A stretch of 64,000 nucleotides of DNA from Desulfobulbus sp. (GCA_009780825.1 WQZH01000007.1:52696-116695); one strand, 5' to 3'; positions 7,665 to 59,985 are shown, numbered from the stretch's first letter. Notes: generated by a model from the letters alone, not told the origin. Program-made: numbers and translations.

Positions 7665-9097
7665 TATTGACACCGTCCGTATTGATCGAGCAGACGGACA
7701 ATATCGTCCTCTCCCAGGTATTCGCCGCTCTGTACCTCGATCATGACCAGATTGAGTATGCCGGGATTTTCTAGTCGATGGGCGCAGCCGGCGGGAATGT
7801 AAGTGGATTCGTTGGCGCCGACCAGCATCTCCTTGTCGCCGTTGACCACCTTAGCCATGCCGCTGACCACGATCCAGTGCTCGCTGCGATGATGGTGCAT
7901 CTGCAGGCTGAGACTGGCCCCTGGCTTGACTTCGATCCGCTTGATCTTGAACCGAGACCCCTCCTCGAGCACAGTATAGGTGCCCCAAGGTCGAACAACC
8001 GTGCGGTGCAGCCTGTAGGCATCGTGGTTCTGCTGTTTGAGCCGGTCCACCACCTTTCTTACATCCTGAACCTTGTCCGGATGCACGATGAGCAGGGCGT
8101 CGGCCGTATCAATGACAATCAAATTCTCAATGCCGACCGTGGCAACGAGACGATCTTCATTATGGACATAGACATTCCGGCTGTTGCAGAAAATCGTCTC
8201 TCCCGTACTCCGGTTATTGTCGGCATCGCCGTCGACGAGTTGACTGACGGCGTTCCAGGAACCGATATCGCTCCATCCCATGTCCACCGGCACCACGGCG
8301 ATGTCGGCCGAGCGCTCCATCAGGGCATAATCGATCGAAATATCGGGAAAACGCTTGAAGTCGTCCTGCGGGATTTCCTGCATTGCCGCATGCGGCTGGC
8401 CGGATGCGTTCATGGTATCCCAGCATGCCCGCGCCGCCTCGAAAACATCCGGGGCGTGCCTGGCCATCTGGTCCAGCACCGTTCCGGCGGCAAAGCAGAA
8501 CATGCCCGCGTTCCAGAAGTAATTTCCTGCCGCCAGGTACTGTTTGGCAATATCGGAGTCAGGCTTTTCCACGAACCGGTTGACGGTCTTCCCCGCAGCC
8601 AGATCCCCGCCGGCTTCTATATAGCCAAAGCCTGTTTCCGGTGCATTCGGAACGATCCCGAAGGTCACCATCAGTCCTTGTCCGGCAAGCGTCCGCGCAT
8701 CGGCGACCGCACGGACAAAGGCGGAATGATCCCGCACCAGGTGATCGGCAGGCAAGACCAGCAAACAGGCCGAGGGCCCGAATGCGTCCCTGATGTGCAA
8801 GGCAGCCATGGCAACCGCAGCGGCGGTATTGCGGCCAAAAGGCTCAAGCAGAAAATGCGCCTGCACCGCCTCGCCAATTCCCGCTCTGGCCAATTCGTCC
8901 TTGCTGGTGAAATAGTAGTCCCGGTTGGTGACGGTGAAAACATGTCCGCCTTCGGCGACCGAAGCGGCTCTTTGATATGTTTTGCACAACAGGCTTTGGC
9001 CATCGGCCATTTTCATGAACGGTTTGGGGTGTCCTTCGCGGGAAACCGGCCACAGGCGGGTCCCCGAACCTCCTGAGAGAATGACAGGGATAAGCAT
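7664..9097 (-). CDS. manC: Mannose-1-phosphate guanylyltransferase / mannose-6-phosphate isomerase
   Basis: [41 protein letters not shown], and a C-terminal cupin ([18 protein letters not shown]). Confidence 0.96.
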
Positions 9098-52245: not shown

Positions 52246-55200
52246 ATGATGGGTATTTTCAGTAAAAAGACACAATCCCTCTGGCGGCGGCGCTGGACGG
52301 AAGAAGGCGTCATTCTTGACCGTGGCGGTGCCGGGGTGCAACTCGACGCGCCGCTTTTGCCCGCTTTTCTGGAGCAACTTCAGGATGACGGGCACGCTGT
52401 GGAATGGGGCGACGACCTGATCATTTCCTGGGATGAACTCTATGATGCCCTGGCAAAAGAAGGCTATGAGGAGTTGGCCCAGGCGTTGAAGCTGCCACCG
52501 GAGACGCCGCATCATCCCCGGTTGGGAAGTAGCGGGGCCTTGACCGACCTGGATTTTTCCATCGTTCTTTCCTGGAAAAAATTTGGTGTTACAGCCAATC
52601 TCAAGCGCTGCGGCGCGGTGCTTACCGACGGAAACGGTGAAGAATTGATGACGGTCGCCCAGTGGCGGCTGGCGCGGGAGGTTGTCGCTTTTGCGAAACG
52701 GCAAGACCACGATGAACTGTATCAGCGGCAAAGTTGGGGCCGCATTCGCAAACTGGCACAAATGACGGGAGCGGGGCTTGATGATTTCCTCGGGCGCACC
52801 GTGGTGCTGACCCCGGATAAACTGCAACTCGGTTTGAACAAGATGGAGGATGCGGGCGAGGCCATTGTGGAAATCGTCCCAACATTCGAGGATGCGCCTC
52901 CCGGCTGGCTCCTCTCTTTCGATGCGGCGAATAGCGTCCGTGACCGCTATGACATCGTCACTGAAGAAGGCATTGTGCAGGTGCTGGTGACCCCGGAAGT
53001 TAAAACGGTGTTGCGGGAAATCAAACGGTTGCCGAAACGCCGGGCAACCGGGGCGCGGGCCAAAGCCATTTTACTCAACCCTGTCGCCGCCCTGGGCGAT
53101 GAAGCTGGAACAGTCATTGATCCAGAACAGATCGAAACGGCGCGGGAACAGGCCGGTATTGTTCACGAATATCTTTATCCACTAATAGAACGCGACAACT
53201 ACGGTTTCCCGGCCTGCGTCGGCTTGCGCGTCGAAACGCTGACGGGTGGCGGCGTCTCTTCGTCGAAAACAGAATGGTTGACCGATGACGAAGACGACCA
53301 TGCCCTAGACGAATTTGTGCGGCAACTGAACGTAGCTCTGGTGCAGCATTTCCCGTTGCTGGGCTGGCAGGGCTATGAATTTGAGCTGCGGAGCGACGCG
53401 GCGGAACATCTGCGGCACTTGCAAAAGGCGCTTGACGAACGAAGGACGCCGCATATCCGCATCCGCTATGAGGACATCCATAACCTGGCGAACTACAGCG
53501 ACCGCATTGAGGGTATCGGCGAGGAAAAAGCCTATGTTTCTGTTTATATCAAAAAAGACGGCAAACCGTGGTTTCCCGTTGATCCGATTGACCTCACCAT
53601 TATTTCCATTCCGCCACTGTCCGAAGGCGGCGATGGCACGCTGCTGCCGGTCACGCCAAAGCAGATTGAAGAATTAAAAACAGCGGTCAATGACGCGAAA
53701 GAGCGAGAAGAGACAGAGATCAACCTGCCTTGGCTGCCACGCCCTCTTGCGGTCGATGAGGCGGATGAAATCACTAAAGATTTTCCCGGTGCTGAAGCTC
53801 AAAAACCTCCTGTTGGTGGCGGTAACCCTCCCAAACCGCCACCAACACCTGGCAAGCCGAACACCCTCATCCTCAAATCCAATATCAATACCTTGGACTA
53901 TGCGCAACTTCGCCGGGAGGCGGCGGAGAAAGCGCTTTTGGCCCCTCCGCGCCCGCCGCAAAGCCTGCGGAAAAATATCAGTCTTCTTGACCATCAAAAA
54001 GTCGGTCTGGCCTGGTTGCAGGGAATGCACCGGGAGCGAGAGCGCATTAACGCTGGCGGCGTCATCCTCGCCGATGACATGGGTCTTGGCAAGACCCTGC
54101 AAATCCTCGCTTTCATGGCTGGTCTTCTCGAAGAAAGCCCAGAGACCAATCCCATGCTGGTGGTGGCGCCGGTGTCGCTTCTCGACAACTGGCGGGAGGA
54201 GATGGCAAGGTTTTTCATCCTCAAGGCACTGCCCACGCTTACCGCCTATGGCGATGGCCTGGCCCATCTGCGCCTGCCACGGGACCAGGTGGATGAGCGT
54301 CTGCGTCAAGAAGACGGCTTGGTGAGTTTTCTTAAACCCGGTTGGGTTGGCAATCACAAAATTGTTCTTACCACCTACGAGACGTTACGCAACCTGGAGT
54401 TTTCCTTCGCCTTGCAGCCCTGGTCGGTGATGGTCTGCGACGAGGCACAGAAGATCAAAAACCCGGCAGCCATGGTCACACGGGCGGCGAAAAAACAGAA
54501 AGCCGCCTTCAAGATCGCCTGCACCGGCACGCCGGTGGAGAATACGCTGGCTGACCTGTGGTGCCTCTTTGATTTCATCCAGCCTGGTCTTCTCGACGCT
54601 TTGGATGAATTCGGCAAACGCTACCGCAAACCGATCGAGGCCAGAACCGAGGAAGAGAAAGCGAAGGTGGAGGAACTGCGGCAAAAAATTGCCCCGCAGG
54701 TGCTGCGCCGCCTCAAGGCGGATGTGGCAAAGGATTTGAAAGAAAAGCGAGTTGACGCGGACTGCCGCAAGCTGCCCCTGTCCGACGAGCAACGGCGCTT
54801 GTATGCTGGGGCCATCAAGTTGTTTAGAAGGCGCGACCAGCCGGGCGCGGCCACGCCTTTCAAAAATCACCTGGGCCTGTTGCACTACCTGCGCCTGGTC
54901 TGCACCGATCCGAAACGCCACGGACTCACCAGCTTCACGCCGGAACCACTCAGCCAATATCGCGCCAAAGCGCCGAAACTGGACTGGTTGCTGGATCGAT
55001 TGCACGGCATCAAAAAACAAAAGGAAAAAGCCATTATCTTCTGCGAATTCCGGGAAATGCAGCGGCTATTGCAGCATTACATTCATGAATCCATCGGGTT
55101 GCGACCGCAGATTATCAACGGCGAGACCGCCACGTCGGCAGGCAGCGCCACCAGCCGCCAAAAACAAATCAGGAAATTTCAGGAGGAGAAAGGCTTTGGT

Positions 55201-55957
55201 GTGCTCATCCTGTCACCCCTGGCGGTTGGATTCGGCGTCAACATCCAGGCGGCCAACCATGTCATTCATTACACGCGAACTTGGAATCCGGCCAAGGAGG
55301 ATCAGGCCACCGACCGCGCCTACCGCATCGGCCAGGAAAAGGATGTCTTTGTCTATCTATCCCACGGTATGCGCCGATGATTTCGTCACCTTCGATGTCC
55401 GGCTTGATGAACTGCTGGAAAAAAAGCGCGGTCTCGCCGGTGATATGCTCAATGGCACCGGGGATGTGGATTGGAGCGACGCCCTGACGGGCATGACGCC
55501 AGATGGCGGCGGGACGCTCGATGAACGGATTACCATGGAAAAAATCGGGGCCATAGATCCCCGCTACTTCGAGGCGCTGACGGTGGCGATCTGGGGTAAA
55601 CGCGGATTTACCTGTGTCCTCACACCGCCAAGCGGTGATCAGGGCATTGATGTCGTTGCCATACAAGGCGAAGAGGGCGTTTTGATTCAGGTAAAAAAGG
55701 CGTCTGAGGACAGGGCTCTGGGCTGGGACGCCGTGAAGGAGGTTGTGGCTGGAGAGGCATATTATCGTCAACAGCACCCAGGAATCAACTTTCAGAAGAT
55801 TGCCTTGACCAATCAATTGTTCAACGATGCGGCCAGGGAACAGGCGCGGCTCAATGACGTGGAATTGCTGGAGCAGGCGTGGCTTGAACAATCTCTTGGA
55901 GAGTATGCCATCATGATGTCCGAACTTGAGCGGATACTGTTTCGGAGCGAATCGTGA
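52246..55957 (+). pseudogene. zorD: Zorya ZorD (SNF2 helicase plus C-terminal Mrr-like nuclease), interrupted by a +1 insertion at about 55357
   Basis: N-terminus LEQL...SWDELY...GALTDLDF; ADDMGLGKT, CDEAQKIKN, TGTPVEN, WNPAKEDQATDRAYRIGQ. Next frame gives YPTVCADDFVTFD...FEAL...DQGIDVV...LIQVK (Mrr-type). Confidence 0.88.
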
Positions 55958-56341
55958 TGCAAGGCCACAAGATGTGGATGCGTCAGCGCGCGGGAAAACT
56001 CATGCCGCCAAAAGAACCGGCGCCTGTCGCTCACCTTTGATTTGCATTCCCTCTGCAACCAGGCGGTGTTCCCCTCTTTTTCGGGCAATAAATTTCTTGT
56101 GATTCTTGACCAGCGAACTATATTGCCCGCAGCCAACATGCCTGCGGCGCATATATCTGCGCCAGGCTGACAGTCCATTACCAAAAAAGGAACGATGAAC
56201 GACTCAGACGGCAGTCACAGTTGCTGGTCAACGGACCAGGGACACGAACAGTTGCAACAACCTGAACACCCTAGATCGCGGTGCTTGAGCCGCGCGGCAG
56301 GCACATTGGACAGTCGGCGCTCGTTTCACGTTTAGCCCTCA

Positions 56342-56389
56342 GTTCACTTCCGGCCGCCCCTCGACCACCGCGGCCGCAAGGAGGTGAAC
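56342..56389 (+). promoter_or_regulatory. Hairpin sequestering a strong Shine-Dalgarno in the mgtA leader
   Basis: GTTCACTTCC (56342-51) pairs with GGAGGTGAAC (56380-89); inner GGCCGC/GCGGCC stem. Confidence 0.55.
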
Positions 56390-56390
56390 C

Positions 56391-56534
56391 TTGGCGTCTC
56401 CATCTTTCTTGGCATTCTCCCCACCCATCAGCCCTTCTTCCGGCAACGATGGTGCTACTCACCCATCCTTCCATCCCGTCTATCGCTTTCTTTTCGTCAT
56501 CAACGTTGCGAGTTGCGAGAGGACGCGGCCATGA
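56391..56534 (+). CDS. Candidate Pro-rich leader peptide of mgtA (47 aa)
   Basis: AAGGAGGT 5 nt before TTG; MASPSFLAFSPPISPSSGNDGATHPSFHPVYRFLFVINVASCERTRP*; stop overlaps the mgtA ATG (ATGA). Confidence 0.45.
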   Translation: MASPSFLAFSPPISPSSGNDGATHPSFHPVYRFLFVINVASCERTRP

Positions 56535-59182
56535 GCAACGCTCCCTCTTTCCGCTCTGCCGCATCGCCGACAAAAAATAAGTTTCAGCAGCAAAATGACA
56601 ACGAACAGCGCCTGCTGTCCAATTGCATTGGCTCGCCGGAGGAAATGGCGGCCAGCCTTGACGTCAGCCTGCACGGCTTGAGCGCCCAGGAAGCCGAGAA
56701 GCGCCTGAGCCATTTCGGTCCGAACGAGTTGACCAGTACGCAACGGCTGAGTGTGGTCGTGGACATCTACCACCGGCTGAAAAGTCCGCTGGTGGTGCAA
56801 TTGCTGGTGATTGCCCTGCTCTCGGCCGCGATGGGCGAGATGGCGTCATCCATCATCGTCGGGGCGATGATCGTGCTCAGTGTCGGCCTCTCCTTTGTTC
56901 TTGATCGGAAATCCGGCAATGCGGTCGAAACCTTGGGCAAACGTGTCCAGTCAAGGACCTATGTCATCCGGGATGGAGAAGAGGTTGAAATCAAGATGTC
57001 GGATGTCGTGCCTGGCGACATCGTGCTGCTCCAGGCAGGCTCCATCGTGCCGGCGGACCTGCGCCTGATCGCGGCCAAGGATTTTTTTGTCAGCGAATCC
57101 GCGCTGACCGGCGAATCCATGCCAGTGGAAAAAACGAGCCAGATGCCGGCAACACCTCCTACCACGGCGCTGGAACTGGTCAACGCCTGTTTTCTCGGCA
57201 CCTCGGTCATCAGCGGCACGGCCCGCGGCATGGTGATCAACACCGGCCCCAGCACACTGTTTGGCGCCATTGCGGAACGATTGGCGGACACAAGCCAGAA
57301 GACCAGCTTTGACCTCGGCGTCCGCTCGTTCACCTGGCTGATGATCCGTTTCATGCTCATCATGGTCTGCGCGGTGTTTTGTATCGTCGGGCTGACCAAG
57401 GGTGACTGGCTCGAAGCCCTGTTGTTCGGCCTGTCGGTGGCGGTGGGACTGACCCCGGAGATGCTGCCGATGATCGTGACCGTCAATCTCGCCAAGGGGG
57501 CCCTGACGATGGCCAAGAAAAAGGTCATTGTCAAACGCCTGCCGTCGATCCAGAATTTTGGCGCCATCGACATCCTCTGCACCGACAAGACGGGGACCCT
57601 CACCCAGGACAAGGTCGTGCTGGAGCGCCATGTGGACATCGTGGGCCATCCCAGCGAGGAGGTGCTCAATTACGCCTTCCTCAACAGTTATTTCCAGACT
57701 GGGCTGCGCAATCTAATCGATCGGGCCGTGATCGAATTTGCCGGTCTTGCGGTCGATTCCAACTGCCGCCTGGTGGATGAGTTGCCCTTTGATTTCCAGC
57801 GCCGCCGCATGTCGGTGGTGGTGGAATATGAAGGTGACCACGTCTTGATCTGCAAGGGCGCGGTCGAGGAAATCTATTCCTGCTGCAGCCACTACCAGAT
57901 CAACGAGGAGATTTACCCCCTGATCGACCTGATTCGTGCCGATCTGTTCGAGGAAGTCGACAAGCTCAACTCCGAGGGCTTTCGGGTGCTCGGCATTGCC
58001 TACCGCGAATTTTCCGCAGCAAGATCAGTCTTTACGGTTGAAGATGAAAGTCGGATGATTCTCCTGGGATATATCGCCTTCTTCGATCCGCCCAAGGTTT
58101 CAGCCACCGAAGCCCTGAAAATTTTACCCGACGTCGGCGTGACGGTGAAAGTTCTCACCGGGGACAATGGCCTGATTACCCAAACGGTCTGCCGACACGT
58201 GGGCTTGCATGTGCGGCAGATGATCAGCGGCGCGGAACTGGCCAGGCTTGACCAGGCGCATTTTTCTCAAGCCGTGCAGACCTGCGACGTGTTTGTCAAG
58301 CTCACCCCCACCCAGAAGGAGCAGATTGTCCGCGAACTTCGCCGCTGCGGGCACGTCGTCGGATTCATGGGTGACGGCATCAACGATGCCCCGGCCCTGA
58401 AAGCGGCCGACGTCGGCATCTCGGTGGACTCCGGGGTCGATGTTGCCAAGGAGGCAGCCGATATTGTCCTGCTGGAGAAGAGCCTCCTGGTCCTGGAAGA
58501 GGGCATCATGGAGGGACGCCGCGTTTTTGCCAATATCATCAAATACATCCGCATGGGATCAAGTTCAAATTTCGGCAACATGTTCAGCGTGGTCGGCGCC
58601 AGTTATCTGCTGCCTTTTCTGCCGATGCTGCCGGTGCAGATCCTGGTCAACAATCTGCTCTACGATTTTTCCCAGACCGGCATCCCAGCCGATACGGTCG
58701 ATGAGGAGCAAATCGCCCATCCCCGTAAATGGAATATCGACAATATCAAGCGGTTCATGGTGTATATCGGACCGATCAGTTCTTTGTTCGATTACGCCAC
58801 CTTTGCCTTGATGTGGTTTGTATTCCACTGTTCAGAGTATCTTGCCCCCGGCATCTCTCCAGAGCAGCAGGAGCAATGGGCGCGGCTTTTCCAGACCGGA
58901 TGGTTTGTCGAGTCGCTCCTGACCCAAACCCTGATCGTCCACATCATCCGCACCCGCCGTATCCCTTTCTTCCAAAGCAGCGCCTCGCTGCCCATGACCA
59001 TGACCACCTTGGCGGTGATGGCCGTCGGGGTGTGGCTCCCCTATTCACCTTTTGCCGGCGCTCTTGGCCTGGTGGCCCTGCCCCCGATGTACTGGGCCTG
59101 GATAGCCGTCTTTCTGGCCACCTACTGTATCTTGACTCATGGAGTCAAAACCTGGTTCTTTCATCGGTACGGAGGTAATTGA
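56531..59182 (+). CDS. mgtA: Magnesium-translocating P-type ATPase
   Basis: LTGES, VGLTPEMLPMIV, CTDKTGTLT, LPFDFQRRRMSV, TGDN, GDGIND, SSNFGNMFS, TGWFVES. Confidence 0.96.
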   Translation: MSNAPSFRSAASPTKNKFQQQNDNEQRLLSNCIGSPEEMAASLDVSLHGLSAQEAEKRLSHFGPNELTSTQRLSVVVDIYHRLKSPLVVQLLVIALLSAAMGEMASSIIVGAMIVLSVGLSFVLDRKSGNAVETLGKRVQSRTYVIRDGEEVEIKMSDVVPGDIVLLQAGSIVPADLRLIAAKDFFVSESALTGESMPVEKTSQMPATPPTTALELVNACFLGTSVISGTARGMVINTGPSTLFGAIAERLADTSQKTSFDLGVRSFTWLMIRFMLIMVCAVFCIVGLTKGDWLEALLFGLSVAVGLTPEMLPMIVTVNLAKGALTMAKKKVIVKRLPSIQNFGAIDILCTDKTGTLTQDKVVLERHVDIVGHPSEEVLNYAFLNSYFQTGLRNLIDRAVIEFAGLAVDSNCRLVDELPFDFQRRRMSVVVEYEGDHVLICKGAVEEIYSCCSHYQINEEIYPLIDLIRADLFEEVDKLNSEGFRVLGIAYREFSAARSVFTVEDESRMILLGYIAFFDPPKVSATEALKILPDVGVTVKVLTGDNGLITQTVCRHVGLHVRQMISGAELARLDQAHFSQAVQTCDVFVKLTPTQKEQIVRELRRCGHVVGFMGDGINDAPALKAADVGISVDSGVDVAKEAADIVLLEKSLLVLEEGIMEGRRVFANIIKYIRMGSSSNFGNMFSVVGASYLLPFLPMLPVQILVNNLLYDFSQTGIPADTVDEEQIAHPRKWNIDNIKRFMVYIGPISSLFDYATFALMWFVFHCSEYLAPGISPEQQEQWARLFQTGWFVESLLTQTLIVHIIRTRRIPFFQSSASLPMTMTTLAVMAVGVWLPYSPFAGALGLVALPPMYWAWIAVFLATYCILTHGVKTWFFHRYGGN

Positions 59183-59184
59183 CC

Positions 59185-59985
59185 ATGGAAACCCTGCTTG
59201 ATGCCTTACAGGAAGGGCGGCTGTTCGAACTGCCCGAAAATGACAAAACCCATGCCTTGCAGTTCCTGGCGCACATCATCGAGGCATTTCCCGAGATTCC
59301 GGCCGGCACGGAAATCGTCGAACTGGTCATGGCCCGGGAACAGGCCACCAATACCGGCATCGGCAAAGGCTGGTCCTGTCCGCATGCGGGCGTTCCCTTT
59401 GACGGCGATCTGGTCTGCGTGGTCGGCTGGAGTCCGTCCGGGATTAACTACGGAACCAAAGACCAGCAACCGGTCCAGTTGGTGGTGATGTACCTGGTGC
59501 CGACCAACCAACGGAGCCATTATTTACGCGAAGTTTCCATCATGGCCAAGGCGGTGGAGGGTTTTCCCGATAACGGCAGGCTGGAGTCGGCGCAGGATCT
59601 GAATGATGTCCGCAACTATCTGCTCGATCTCATAGCGGCGTCCAAGGAGACCGCTGTCCCGGATATCAGGACGAGAATGATCCGGCTGCAGGCCAAACCG
59701 GCCATTGAGCCCCCAGCCTTGAAAGATCTTTCCAACCTCGTCGTTGAACCGGTTTCTTTGGTCAGCGGCTTGGGACTGCGCCAGATCACCTTGAGTCAAA
59801 ACGCCGAGCTGACCGAAATGCTCGACCGGGCCGATGGGTTAATCGAAAAACTCGAGGCGGATGGAGTCTATCAGATCAAAGATTGGCGGGTCCTGCGCCG
59901 CATCACCTCGGCCTACGAAGGAGGGCGGATCGTGCATAAATGCCTGGCCATCCGAATTATGCCGGAGCGTACAGCGAAATCGTGA
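59185..59985 (+). CDS. PTS EIIA-domain protein with C-terminal extension
   Basis: REQATNTGIGKGWSCPHA (EIIA type-2 fold, conserved His); GGAGGT RBS inside the end of mgtA. Confidence 0.8.
   Translation: METLLDALQEGRLFELPENDKTHALQFLAHIIEAFPEIPAGTEIVELVMAREQATNTGIGKGWSCPHAGVPFDGDLVCVVGWSPSGINYGTKDQQPVQLVVMYLVPTNQRSHYLREVSIMAKAVEGFPDNGRLESAQDLNDVRNYLLDLIAASKETAVPDIRTRMIRLQAKPAIEPPALKDLSNLVVEPVSLVSGLGLRQITLSQNAELTEMLDRADGLIEKLEADGVYQIKDWRVLRRITSAYEGGRIVHKCLAIRIMPERTAKS

Follow-up and report, generated by a model that had tools for sequence, protein, structure and literature searches.

The gene mgtA of Desulfobulbus sp., which codes for a magnesium-translocating P-type ATPase, is preceded by a region in which a Shine-Dalgarno (SD) sequence lies buried in a long hairpin and a short reading frame runs up to the start codon of the gene. 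The question raised by this locus is whether the region is a magnesium-responsive leader and, if so, which of its parts could do the sensing. The locus belongs to a stretch of 64,000 nucleotides (nt) (GCA_009780825.1 WQZH01000007.1:52696-116695), called here the window, and positions are counted from its first letter. A preliminary description, made from the sequence alone, had seen a candidate attenuator in the region and had assigned the sensing to the short proline-rich frame with a TTG start, as an analogue of the MgtL peptide of Salmonella.

The present analysis leads to a different assignment. Positions 56097-56534 probably form a conserved leader that controls magnesium transporters by translational attenuation of the ermC/mgtL kind, by means of an upstream open reading frame (ORF1), and that is coupled to mgtA through a second frame (ORF2), which is the TTG frame just mentioned. 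A small frame with a conserved position, ending at the mgtA start, had been noticed correctly; what had been missed is ORF1 (56195-56335) together with the alternative pairing inside it, the likely sensing parts. To our knowledge, leader-peptide control of magnesium transporters is known almost only from enterobacteria (mgtL, corL, mgtP, mgtQ), the M-box being the standard elsewhere. The present leader would be a third solution to magnesium control, seemingly independent, in anaerobic environmental bacteria, and its long conserved peptide and readable two-helix switch, with SD access as the output, would make it directly testable.

Distribution of the leader

Three independent searches, one by homology to MgtA, one with a DNA pattern and one by homology to the ORF1 peptide, supplied the related loci. 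The leader, with the order promoter, ORF1, hairpin and start codon, was recovered in the window and in 38 related loci. Among the ten closest MgtA loci, the whole unit is recognisable in five (L001, L002, L004, L006 and L007) and a diverged unit in three (L003, L005 and L020); it is absent from L012, L013 and 70 more distant MgtA loci. The pattern scan of metagenomes returned 46 stretches, 33 of them true members, and the contigs of three ORF1 protein homologues (L127-L129) bear the whole leader, L127 being a close relative of the window locus. The leader is a single-copy element throughout: neither the window nor any other locus has a second copy. It occurs in environmental anaerobes carrying the labels Desulfobacterota, Spirochaetota and Aminicenantes.

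Depending on the locus, the SD of the hairpin serves different frames. In 13 loci it directly starts a protein of about 460 residues that begins MKNKNPLLVPELRE and contains an MgtE_N domain (E = 2.4e-23), while in L006, L083 and L020 it directly starts mgtA and in the other mgtA loci it starts ORF2, of 18-115 codons. One leader thus appears, from gene order and homology, to serve two unrelated magnesium transporters, mgtE and mgtA. The mgtE arrangement is somewhat more probably the ancestral one, from which the mgtA loci retained the leader and a decaying stub of the gene. This would be a case of a regulatory leader moved between unrelated genes, all that is left of the stub being a frame with its end on the mgtA start.

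ORF1 and the two stem-loops

The existence of a long hairpin burying GGAGG, already noticed in the preliminary description, is borne out by its pairing, its energy and its conservation in relatives. In the lower stem GTTCACTTCC (56342-56351) pairs with GGAGGTGAAC (56380-56389), and in the upper one GGCCGC (56352-56357) pairs with GCGGCC (56370-56375), with a 12-nt loop and a GCAA bulge. The folding energy of -25.8 kcal/mol is by itself only mildly unusual (z = -2.2; 6 of 200 shuffles fold equally well), and the stability of the wider region of 281 nt is no better than that of shuffles (z = -0.27). The hairpin goes beyond chance because it is conserved in 27 related leaders: 91.9% of the cells of the 18-pair alignment are paired, a value reached by none of 500 shuffles, with six pairs altered on both sides and slid controls at 50% or less. 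The family sequence is GGTTCRCCTCC...GGAGGYGAACC followed by a start codon, so that the SD of the regulated frame lies within a conserved stem.

Several minor features of the hairpin were also recorded. The apical loop (56358-56369 in the window, and alike in relatives) is pyrimidine-rich, and many relatives have in it a second CCUCC-like tract, such as GUCCGCCCUCC, which could pair with either SD. A local hairpin, GGAGGTGAACCTTGGCGTCTCC (56380-56401), followed by a T-rich tail, was flagged as terminator-like by a scan; an intrinsic terminator was rejected at this position, the stem being weak and not seen in relatives. With the main hairpin open, the local one might pair the SD with CUCC of ORF2. 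Finally, direct unmasking of the SD by a ribosome terminating on ORF1 was discarded: the core-type stop lies 6 nt 5' of the stem, from where such a ribosome would open no more than 1-3 base pairs, and in four lineages the ORF1 stop lies 27-40 nt upstream.

Upstream of the hairpin, ORF1 is intact in the window and in all 38 related loci. It appears to be a translated sequence, since an SD, a start codon and the open frame are kept in every locus (family length, about 45 codons; in the window the SD is a weak AAGGA, 56187-56191) and since, over the first 33 aligned codons, the ratio of non-synonymous to synonymous differences (pN/pS) has a value of 0.58 in the ORF1 frame, the two shifted ones giving 1.41 and 0.74. 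At the conserved residues the variation falls mostly on the third codon position, as seen in the alignment and the codon-position entropies. No such sign of coding is left in the last third, where pN/pS is about 0.9 whichever frame is read, and ORF1 may therefore be taken as coding over two thirds of its length.

Two stretches of the peptide stand out. The most conserved one is the N-terminal motif, with the family consensus M-(S/N)-D-(S/P)-D-G-S-H-S-C and synonymous changes such as TCA/TCG/TCT/AGT and GAC/GAT; its codons GGC AGT CA were fixed by the search pattern in the metagenome set and were free in the genome set and in L127-L129. A hairpin within GGCAGUCAUAGUUGCC is a possible reason for this conservation, set aside because one of its arms was fixed by the search pattern. 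The second stretch is acidic and contains prolines, with the consensus E-E-P-E-D-P-G-P-R-R, and lies just before the RNA segment discussed below; the window peptide reads MNDSDGSHSC...PEHPRSR... An exhaustive search of 1.84 billion proteins returned three called homologues of ORF1, 57-80% identical, while a word-indexed protein search gave no matches.

Such conservation also suits another reading, according to which ORF1 encodes a small protein acting in trans, as a partner or regulator of the transporter or as a metal-binding peptide, the hairpin serving to set a low basal translation or to couple the genes. Selection at the peptide level extends over some 30 residues, more than in most leader peptides; the Asp, His and Cys of DSDGSHSC are conserved and have no role in the attenuation model; and gene callers sometimes predict ORF1 as a protein. 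Nevertheless, the last third of the frame shows no sign of coding and is at the same time one side of a covarying RNA helix, the peptide matches nothing in Pfam or NCBIfam, and ORF1 always stands directly 5' of the hairpin and never alone. A trans-acting ORF1 is therefore considered unlikely, and it could in any case be compatible with the attenuator.

The last third of ORF1 holds a near copy of the 3' half of the hairpin, CGCGRC...GUGAAC GG, and this copy, called here segment 2, is able to form pairs along the entire 5' half of the hairpin. The alternative helix of 18 pairs, a structure derived from the same sequences on which it is scored, overlaps the translated leader frame and is 77.1% paired in 27 sequences, a level reached by none of 500 shuffles. 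Moreover, ten of its pairs are altered on both sides (as in 2 of 500 shuffles), and slid controls reach 24-44%. Folded alone, the alternative (ON) stem-loop of the window has -22.8 kcal/mol and the SD-sequestering (OFF) hairpin the value given above; the family means are -24.3 and -27.7 kcal/mol, respectively. The two stem-loops are mutually exclusive and about equally stable, each with covariation of its own. When the SD of the hairpin was forced open in folding, segment 2 was the best alternative partner of the 5' arm in at least nine lineages, the window included. Only the extended pairing, including CGCGRC with GYCGCG, beats shuffles; a short version limited to GUGAACGGU with ACCGGUUCGC was no better than them, and several long-range helices (such as AGUUGC/GCGACU, and the start of ORF1 with the 5' arm) gave no consistent covariation and were dropped.

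Two exclusive helices are also what the expression platform of a riboswitch would offer, and the leader might accordingly be read as an RNA-only sensor of magnesium or another ligand, with ORF1 incidental. Even for the mgtA leader of Salmonella, direct binding of Mg2+ by the RNA versus sensing through mgtL translation is still unsettled (PMC11552253). Against an RNA-only sensor, consensus folding gives only the hairpin and short local stems, with no conserved multi-helix aptamer; the codon periodicity upstream of segment 2 and the conserved start codon and SD speak for translation; and Rfam holds no match. This explanation is regarded as improbable.

The attenuation mechanism proposed here would work as follows. 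A promoter of constitutive appearance would give an mRNA with ORF1 as its first frame. Segment 2, in the 3' third of ORF1, would compete for segment 3 (the 5' half of the hairpin) with segment 4 (the 3' half), which carries GGAGG. In every lineage the stop codon of ORF1 lies in or 3' of segment 2, and therefore ribosomes that complete ORF1 always cross it. A ribosome passing smoothly would cover segment 2 until segment 4 had been made, so that 3:4 would pair and hide the SD (OFF); one lingering at the acidic/proline stretch would leave segment 2 free ahead of it, and 2:3 would pair and leave the SD open (ON). With the last proline of DPGP in the P site, the distance to the beginning of segment 2 is about 17 nt in the consensus, compared with 23 nt in the window, a geometry derived from the sequence, so that at the pause segment 2 would sit just outside the usual ribosome footprint. 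The position of the ribosome would select the fold; in equilibrium modelling such an effect is seen only in the five to seven sequences where the alternative fold is the stronger, in which masking the ORF1 codons from about 22 on abolishes the open state.

Magnesium would be the signal, because mgtE and mgtA are the only genes with which the leader is associated and because mgtL and mgtQ provide precedents. In low Mg2+, inefficient elongation of mgtL at proline and acidic codons switches mgtA on (PMC11552253), and the acidic codons of mgtQ free the sequestered ribosome-binding site of mgtB (PMC8092293). By analogy, low magnesium would be expected to make translation of the acidic/proline stretch of ORF1 inefficient, and the acidic and proline residues would be the sensor. 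In mgtE loci the opened SD would start mgtE; in the window and the other mgtA loci with ORF2 it would start ORF2, whose stop on the mgtA start would relay the decision by translational coupling. In the window, the untranslated C-rich RNA of ORF2 may add Rho-dependent polarity.

Several points weigh against this mechanism. In most sequences the OFF hairpin is the favoured fold at equilibrium, and in the window and some 15 others the SD stays paired at every modelled position of the ribosome; the model therefore requires co-transcriptional kinetics. A conserved segment 1, able to pair with segment 2 in ribosome-free RNA, was sought and none could be established. No other member has diverged as far as the window: of the 18 aligned positions in its alternative helix only 11 pair, its mid-ORF1 motif (PEHPRSR) is weak and its ORF1 has a poor SD. 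Furthermore, the shuffle statistics are inflated by having derived the alternative structure from the same sequences, many of them related to each other, and most of these came from a pattern search in which GGCAGTCA and outer parts of the hairpin arms (lower stem) were fixed, the upper stem, segment 2, the rest of ORF1 and ORF2 being left free. Finally, the mechanism gives no role to DSDGSHSC, the most conserved stretch of the peptide.

One tentative extension, rather doubtful in our view, would give that motif a function, ORF1 being a dedicated magnesium-sensing arrest peptide, that is, a nascent-chain ion sensor carried between mgtE and mgtA by leader capture. DSDGSHSC, some 15-20 residues N-terminal to the DPGP pause site, would then lie low in the exit tunnel, where its Asp, His and Cys could act as ligands, so that free Mg2+ or ribosome integrity might be read directly. 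Such a sensor would be distinct from the simple acidic/proline destabilisation of MgtL.

Table 1. Features of the leader and of mgtA in the window (positions from the first letter of the window)
Feature	Position	Strand	Description and basis
Promoter, sigma-70-like	56097-56124	+	TTGTGA, 16 nt, TATATT; consensus scan; predicted transcript start near 56131
Hairpin in the 5' untranslated region	56146-56163	+	GGCGCA, loop TATATC, TGCGCC; inverted repeat
ORF1, leader peptide gene	56195-56335	+	46 codons, MNDSDGSHSCWSTDQGHEQLQQPEHPRSRCLSRAAGTLDSRRSFHV, stop TAG; intact in window and 38 related loci
N-terminal motif of ORF1	56201-56224	+	DSDGSHSC, codons 3-10; most conserved peptide stretch
Acidic/proline stretch of ORF1	56246-56281	+	EQLQQPEHPRSR; proposed pause site; alignment, codon-position entropies
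Segment 2 (putative anti-sequestor)	56293-56311	+	CGCGGCAGGCACATTGGAC, ORF1 codons 33-39; complementary to hairpin 5' half
ON stem-loop	56293-56358	+	segment 2 with GTTCA...GCCGC of hairpin 5' half; ORF1 stop inside
OFF hairpin	56342-56389	+	second SD, GGAGG (56380-56384), in 3' arm; folding, inverted repeat, conservation
ORF2	56391-56534	+	TTG frame, 47 codons, LASPSFLAFSPPISPSS...RTRP; starts 6 nt after GGAGG
C-rich, G-poor tract in ORF2	56401-56500	+	C 40, G 12, T 34, A 14
SD-like sequence of mgtA	56517-56523	+	GAGAGGA, 7 nt 5' of ATG; read from sequence
mgtA, Mg-translocating P-type ATPase	56531-59182	+	883 residues; TIGR01524, Pfam, homologue comparison for start

ORF2 and the start of mgtA

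The frame which had been proposed as the sensor is real as a frame: ORF2 has its 47 codons from a TTG, seven prolines with one Pro-Pro pair, and a stop (TGA, 56532-56534) that overlaps the mgtA ATG (56531-56533), exactly as first described, and the base count of its C-rich tract was likewise correct. The reading built on it holds that ORF2 is a proline-rich, MgtL-like sensor and the tract a rut site, expression being governed mainly by Rho-dependent termination before mgtA. The composition of the window agrees with this, as does that of L127, which retains a C-rich ORF2 (52 C, 25 G, 6 Pro), and untranslated ORF2 RNA would be bare and suited to Rho loading. The comparison with relatives, in turn, speaks against a sensor. 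The sequence of ORF2, its length (18-115 codons), its start codon (ATG, GTG, TTG, ATT or ATA) and its proline content are all unconserved. Between the window and L127, identity is 61% in ORF2, the lowest in the leader, versus 85% in ORF1, 93% in the spacer and hairpin and 79% in the start region of mgtA, ORF2 being the fastest-evolving part. Moreover, no ORF2 exists at loci where mgtE or mgtA itself is the frame driven by the hairpin, and the mgtE-type loci as well as L006, L083 and L020 still keep ORF1 and the hairpin.

The base composition varies in the same way. Within the window, the tract is among the ten or so most C-over-G-skewed of about 6400 windows of 100 nt, several other stretches being equally skewed. 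A C:G ratio of about 2:1 is found in the window, L127, L002 and L007; the skew is weaker in L128, L129, L001 and L117, and in most other mgtA-type loci it is slight or absent, with a ratio near 1. The rut-like tract is thus marked in four loci and is not a feature of the family, and a contribution of Rho in the window is possible.

As to the origin of ORF2, in relatives it begins MKNKNPLLVPELRE, the N-terminus of MgtE. The ORF2 of L092 matches the Pfam family MgtE_N (PF03448) with E = 1.3e-16, and those of L001, L002, L096 and L097 align with the 5' DNA of mgtE at z = 4-17, which marks ORF2 in relatives as a decayed 5' fragment of mgtE. The window ORF2 gave z of about 0 against the 5' ends of seven intact mgtE genes and against most of the relic ORF2s, and no family match; the exception is a 25-column match to the relic ORF2 of L092 (z = 3.8). 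An MgtE N-terminal origin is thus evident in relatives and not in the window, where it would follow from the position of the frame. In a separate lineage (L085, 268-511; L101; L126) ORF2 is chimeric, an MgtE-like beginning of some 20 residues (MNNKNPSFVLDLRRVLGGG) being joined to an unrelated remainder; 25 nt separate its stop from mgtA, which there has an AAGGA of its own.

What is kept in ORF2 is its end. In 12 other loci, with 10 different ORF2 sequences, it ends on the start of mgtA (ATGA; a 1-nt overlap in L007), and in the remaining ORF2-bearing mgtA loci it stops within about 25 nt 5' of mgtA; the junction AGG(A/G)NYGCGCC-ATGA is kept in relatives. Comparison with the relatives therefore preserves two elements of the first proposal, the stem and the frame ending at mgtA, the latter by position, and removes the sequence of the frame. 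Because its sequence, length and proline content are unconserved and because it is an mgtE fragment in relatives, ORF2 appears to be a positional device, a translational coupler, and not a sensor peptide; the sensor function first assigned to it, with termination by Rho as the main mechanism, is rated as a poor prospect. The mgtE stub would explain how selection can keep small upstream frames in place despite their unconserved sequence.

The coupling depends on where MgtA starts. The 883-residue protein belongs to the NCBIfam equivalog TIGR01524, with a full-length score of 1071.8 bits against a curated cut-off of 610.75 (residues 23-881 covering profile positions 7-865), and contains E1-E2_ATPase and related Pfam domains. 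Its frame is open back to TAG 56333, and a 932-residue frame from GTG 56384 was listed among the ORFs; if MgtA began there, a possibility that the preliminary description had itself named as fatal to its proposal, the hairpin and ORF2 would lie inside or overlap the coding region and would have no leader function. This is very improbable indeed. The frames of most of the closest homologues are closed just 5' of the position matching ATG 56531, with starts some 30-40 residues before the conserved C..P..EA motif, and in the protein counted from that ATG the alignment to TIGR01524 sets in at residue 23, for which reasons ATG 56531 is taken as the true start. Furthermore, the GTG lies within a GGAGGTG motif, without SD spacing, and the 49 extra residues are unconserved even in L127. 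The long frame appears because ORF1 and mgtA share a reading frame in the window, TAG 56333 being the sole stop between them. Read-through of that stop, or an ORF1-MgtA fusion, was considered and rejected: in relatives the frame relation is distributed 13, 13 and 8 across the three frames, which points to coincidence.

Known systems, transcription and neighbouring genes

As the preliminary description had stated, the leader differs both from the enterobacterial mgtL/Mg_sensor leader and from the M-box. An Rfam search of window positions 55500-57000 gave no family at E <= 10, Mg_sensor and M-box (RF00380) included, and eight related loci gave no match at E <= 1. No description of this leader family was found in Rfam, Pfam, NCBIfam or the literature searched, so that it is apparently undescribed. 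What would be new is the leader itself, its working principle appearing to be shared, by analogy, with mgtL, mgtQ and attenuation of the ermC type.

Among the closest known systems is mgtL, where a short frame rich in acidic residues and proline also stands 5' of a magnesium transporter gene, corA/corL being similar. The MgtL peptide reads MEPDPTPLPRRRL, which the ORF1 consensus EEPEDPGPRRL resembles. The differences are several: ORF1 has about 45 codons, compared with 17 in mgtL, and an additional conserved N-terminal motif; the output here would be SD sequestration, whereas the mgtL system uses a Rho-dependent terminator; no PhoP-type promoter is evident, there is no match by sequence or covariance model, and the hosts are anaerobic environmental bacteria. 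In both cases two exclusive RNA folds would be set by translation of the frame, efficient translation meaning OFF (PMC11552253). The mgtQ frame of Salmonella, between mgtC and mgtB, resembles the mechanism proposed here in that translation of an acidic-codon frame frees the ribosome-binding site of a P-type magnesium ATPase gene, held in an inhibitory stem-loop, by way of an alternative 2:3 helix, with regulation at the level of translation (PMC8092293). It differs in having 8 codons, in lying between two genes of an operon and in showing no homology; moreover, the putative anti-sequestor here is part of the small frame itself, which would have to be crossed for OFF.

The arrangement of a leader frame and segments 2, 3 and 4, with the SD in segment 4 and a paused ribosome freeing 2 for 3, is that of ermC and cat. 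The signal here would not be an antibiotic, no conserved segment 1 could be defined, and a relic frame would relay the decision to mgtA as a second gene. The M-box (ykoK) is also a magnesium-linked leader 5' of mgtE or mgtA-type genes; unlike it, the present leader has no M-box aptamer, and sensing is assigned to a translated frame. In the pe20 M-box of M. tuberculosis, translation of a small upstream frame is an output, along with Rho termination (PMC12810186). Finally, the 'mgtE motif' riboswitch candidate of Thioalkalivibrio similarly stands 5' of mgtE with the SD and AUG at the base of a long stem, but its description as a multi-stem RNA restricted to Thioalkalivibrio, with no upstream frame reported, sets it apart (PMC11109978).

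A promoter similar to that of the window, with an upstream A-tract, lies about 60-70 nt 5' of ORF1 in nearly all related loci. A hairpin in the 5' untranslated region occurs at the same place in relatives with other letters (GCGTA/TACGC, GTGCGC/GCGCGC, CCATGG/CCATGG), a similarity judged by eye and unscored. No RNA run contained the window locus. For L100, contigs of four activated-sludge metatranscriptomes start at 7941-7948, which is 47-54 nt 5' of the ORF1 ATG, and no contig covers the 200 nt before these starts. They continue through the hairpin into mgtE, and there is therefore no terminator at the hairpin. Over L100 7941-8462, word depth is 5-8 in the leader versus 2-3 in the body of mgtE, and the contigs break 50-270 nt into mgtE; this is a hint, contig depth being a poor measure, that leader RNA is the more abundant.

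With respect to the neighbouring genes, a 268-residue protein with a phosphotransferase system (PTS) EIIA-2/PtsN-like domain (59179-59985, + strand) begins at the stop codon of mgtA. An EIIA-like gene follows mgtA in all close relatives, at 54-64% identity, and mgtA of Verrucomicrobiota and Opitutae likewise has one at 33-38%, which points to a conserved operon of mgtA and an EIIA(Ntr)-like gene. On the other side, the leader of the closest relative, L127, is directly preceded by a gene for a FUR-family regulator (372-872), the place of which is taken in the window by a gene with an Mrr-type restriction endonuclease domain (54752-55957).

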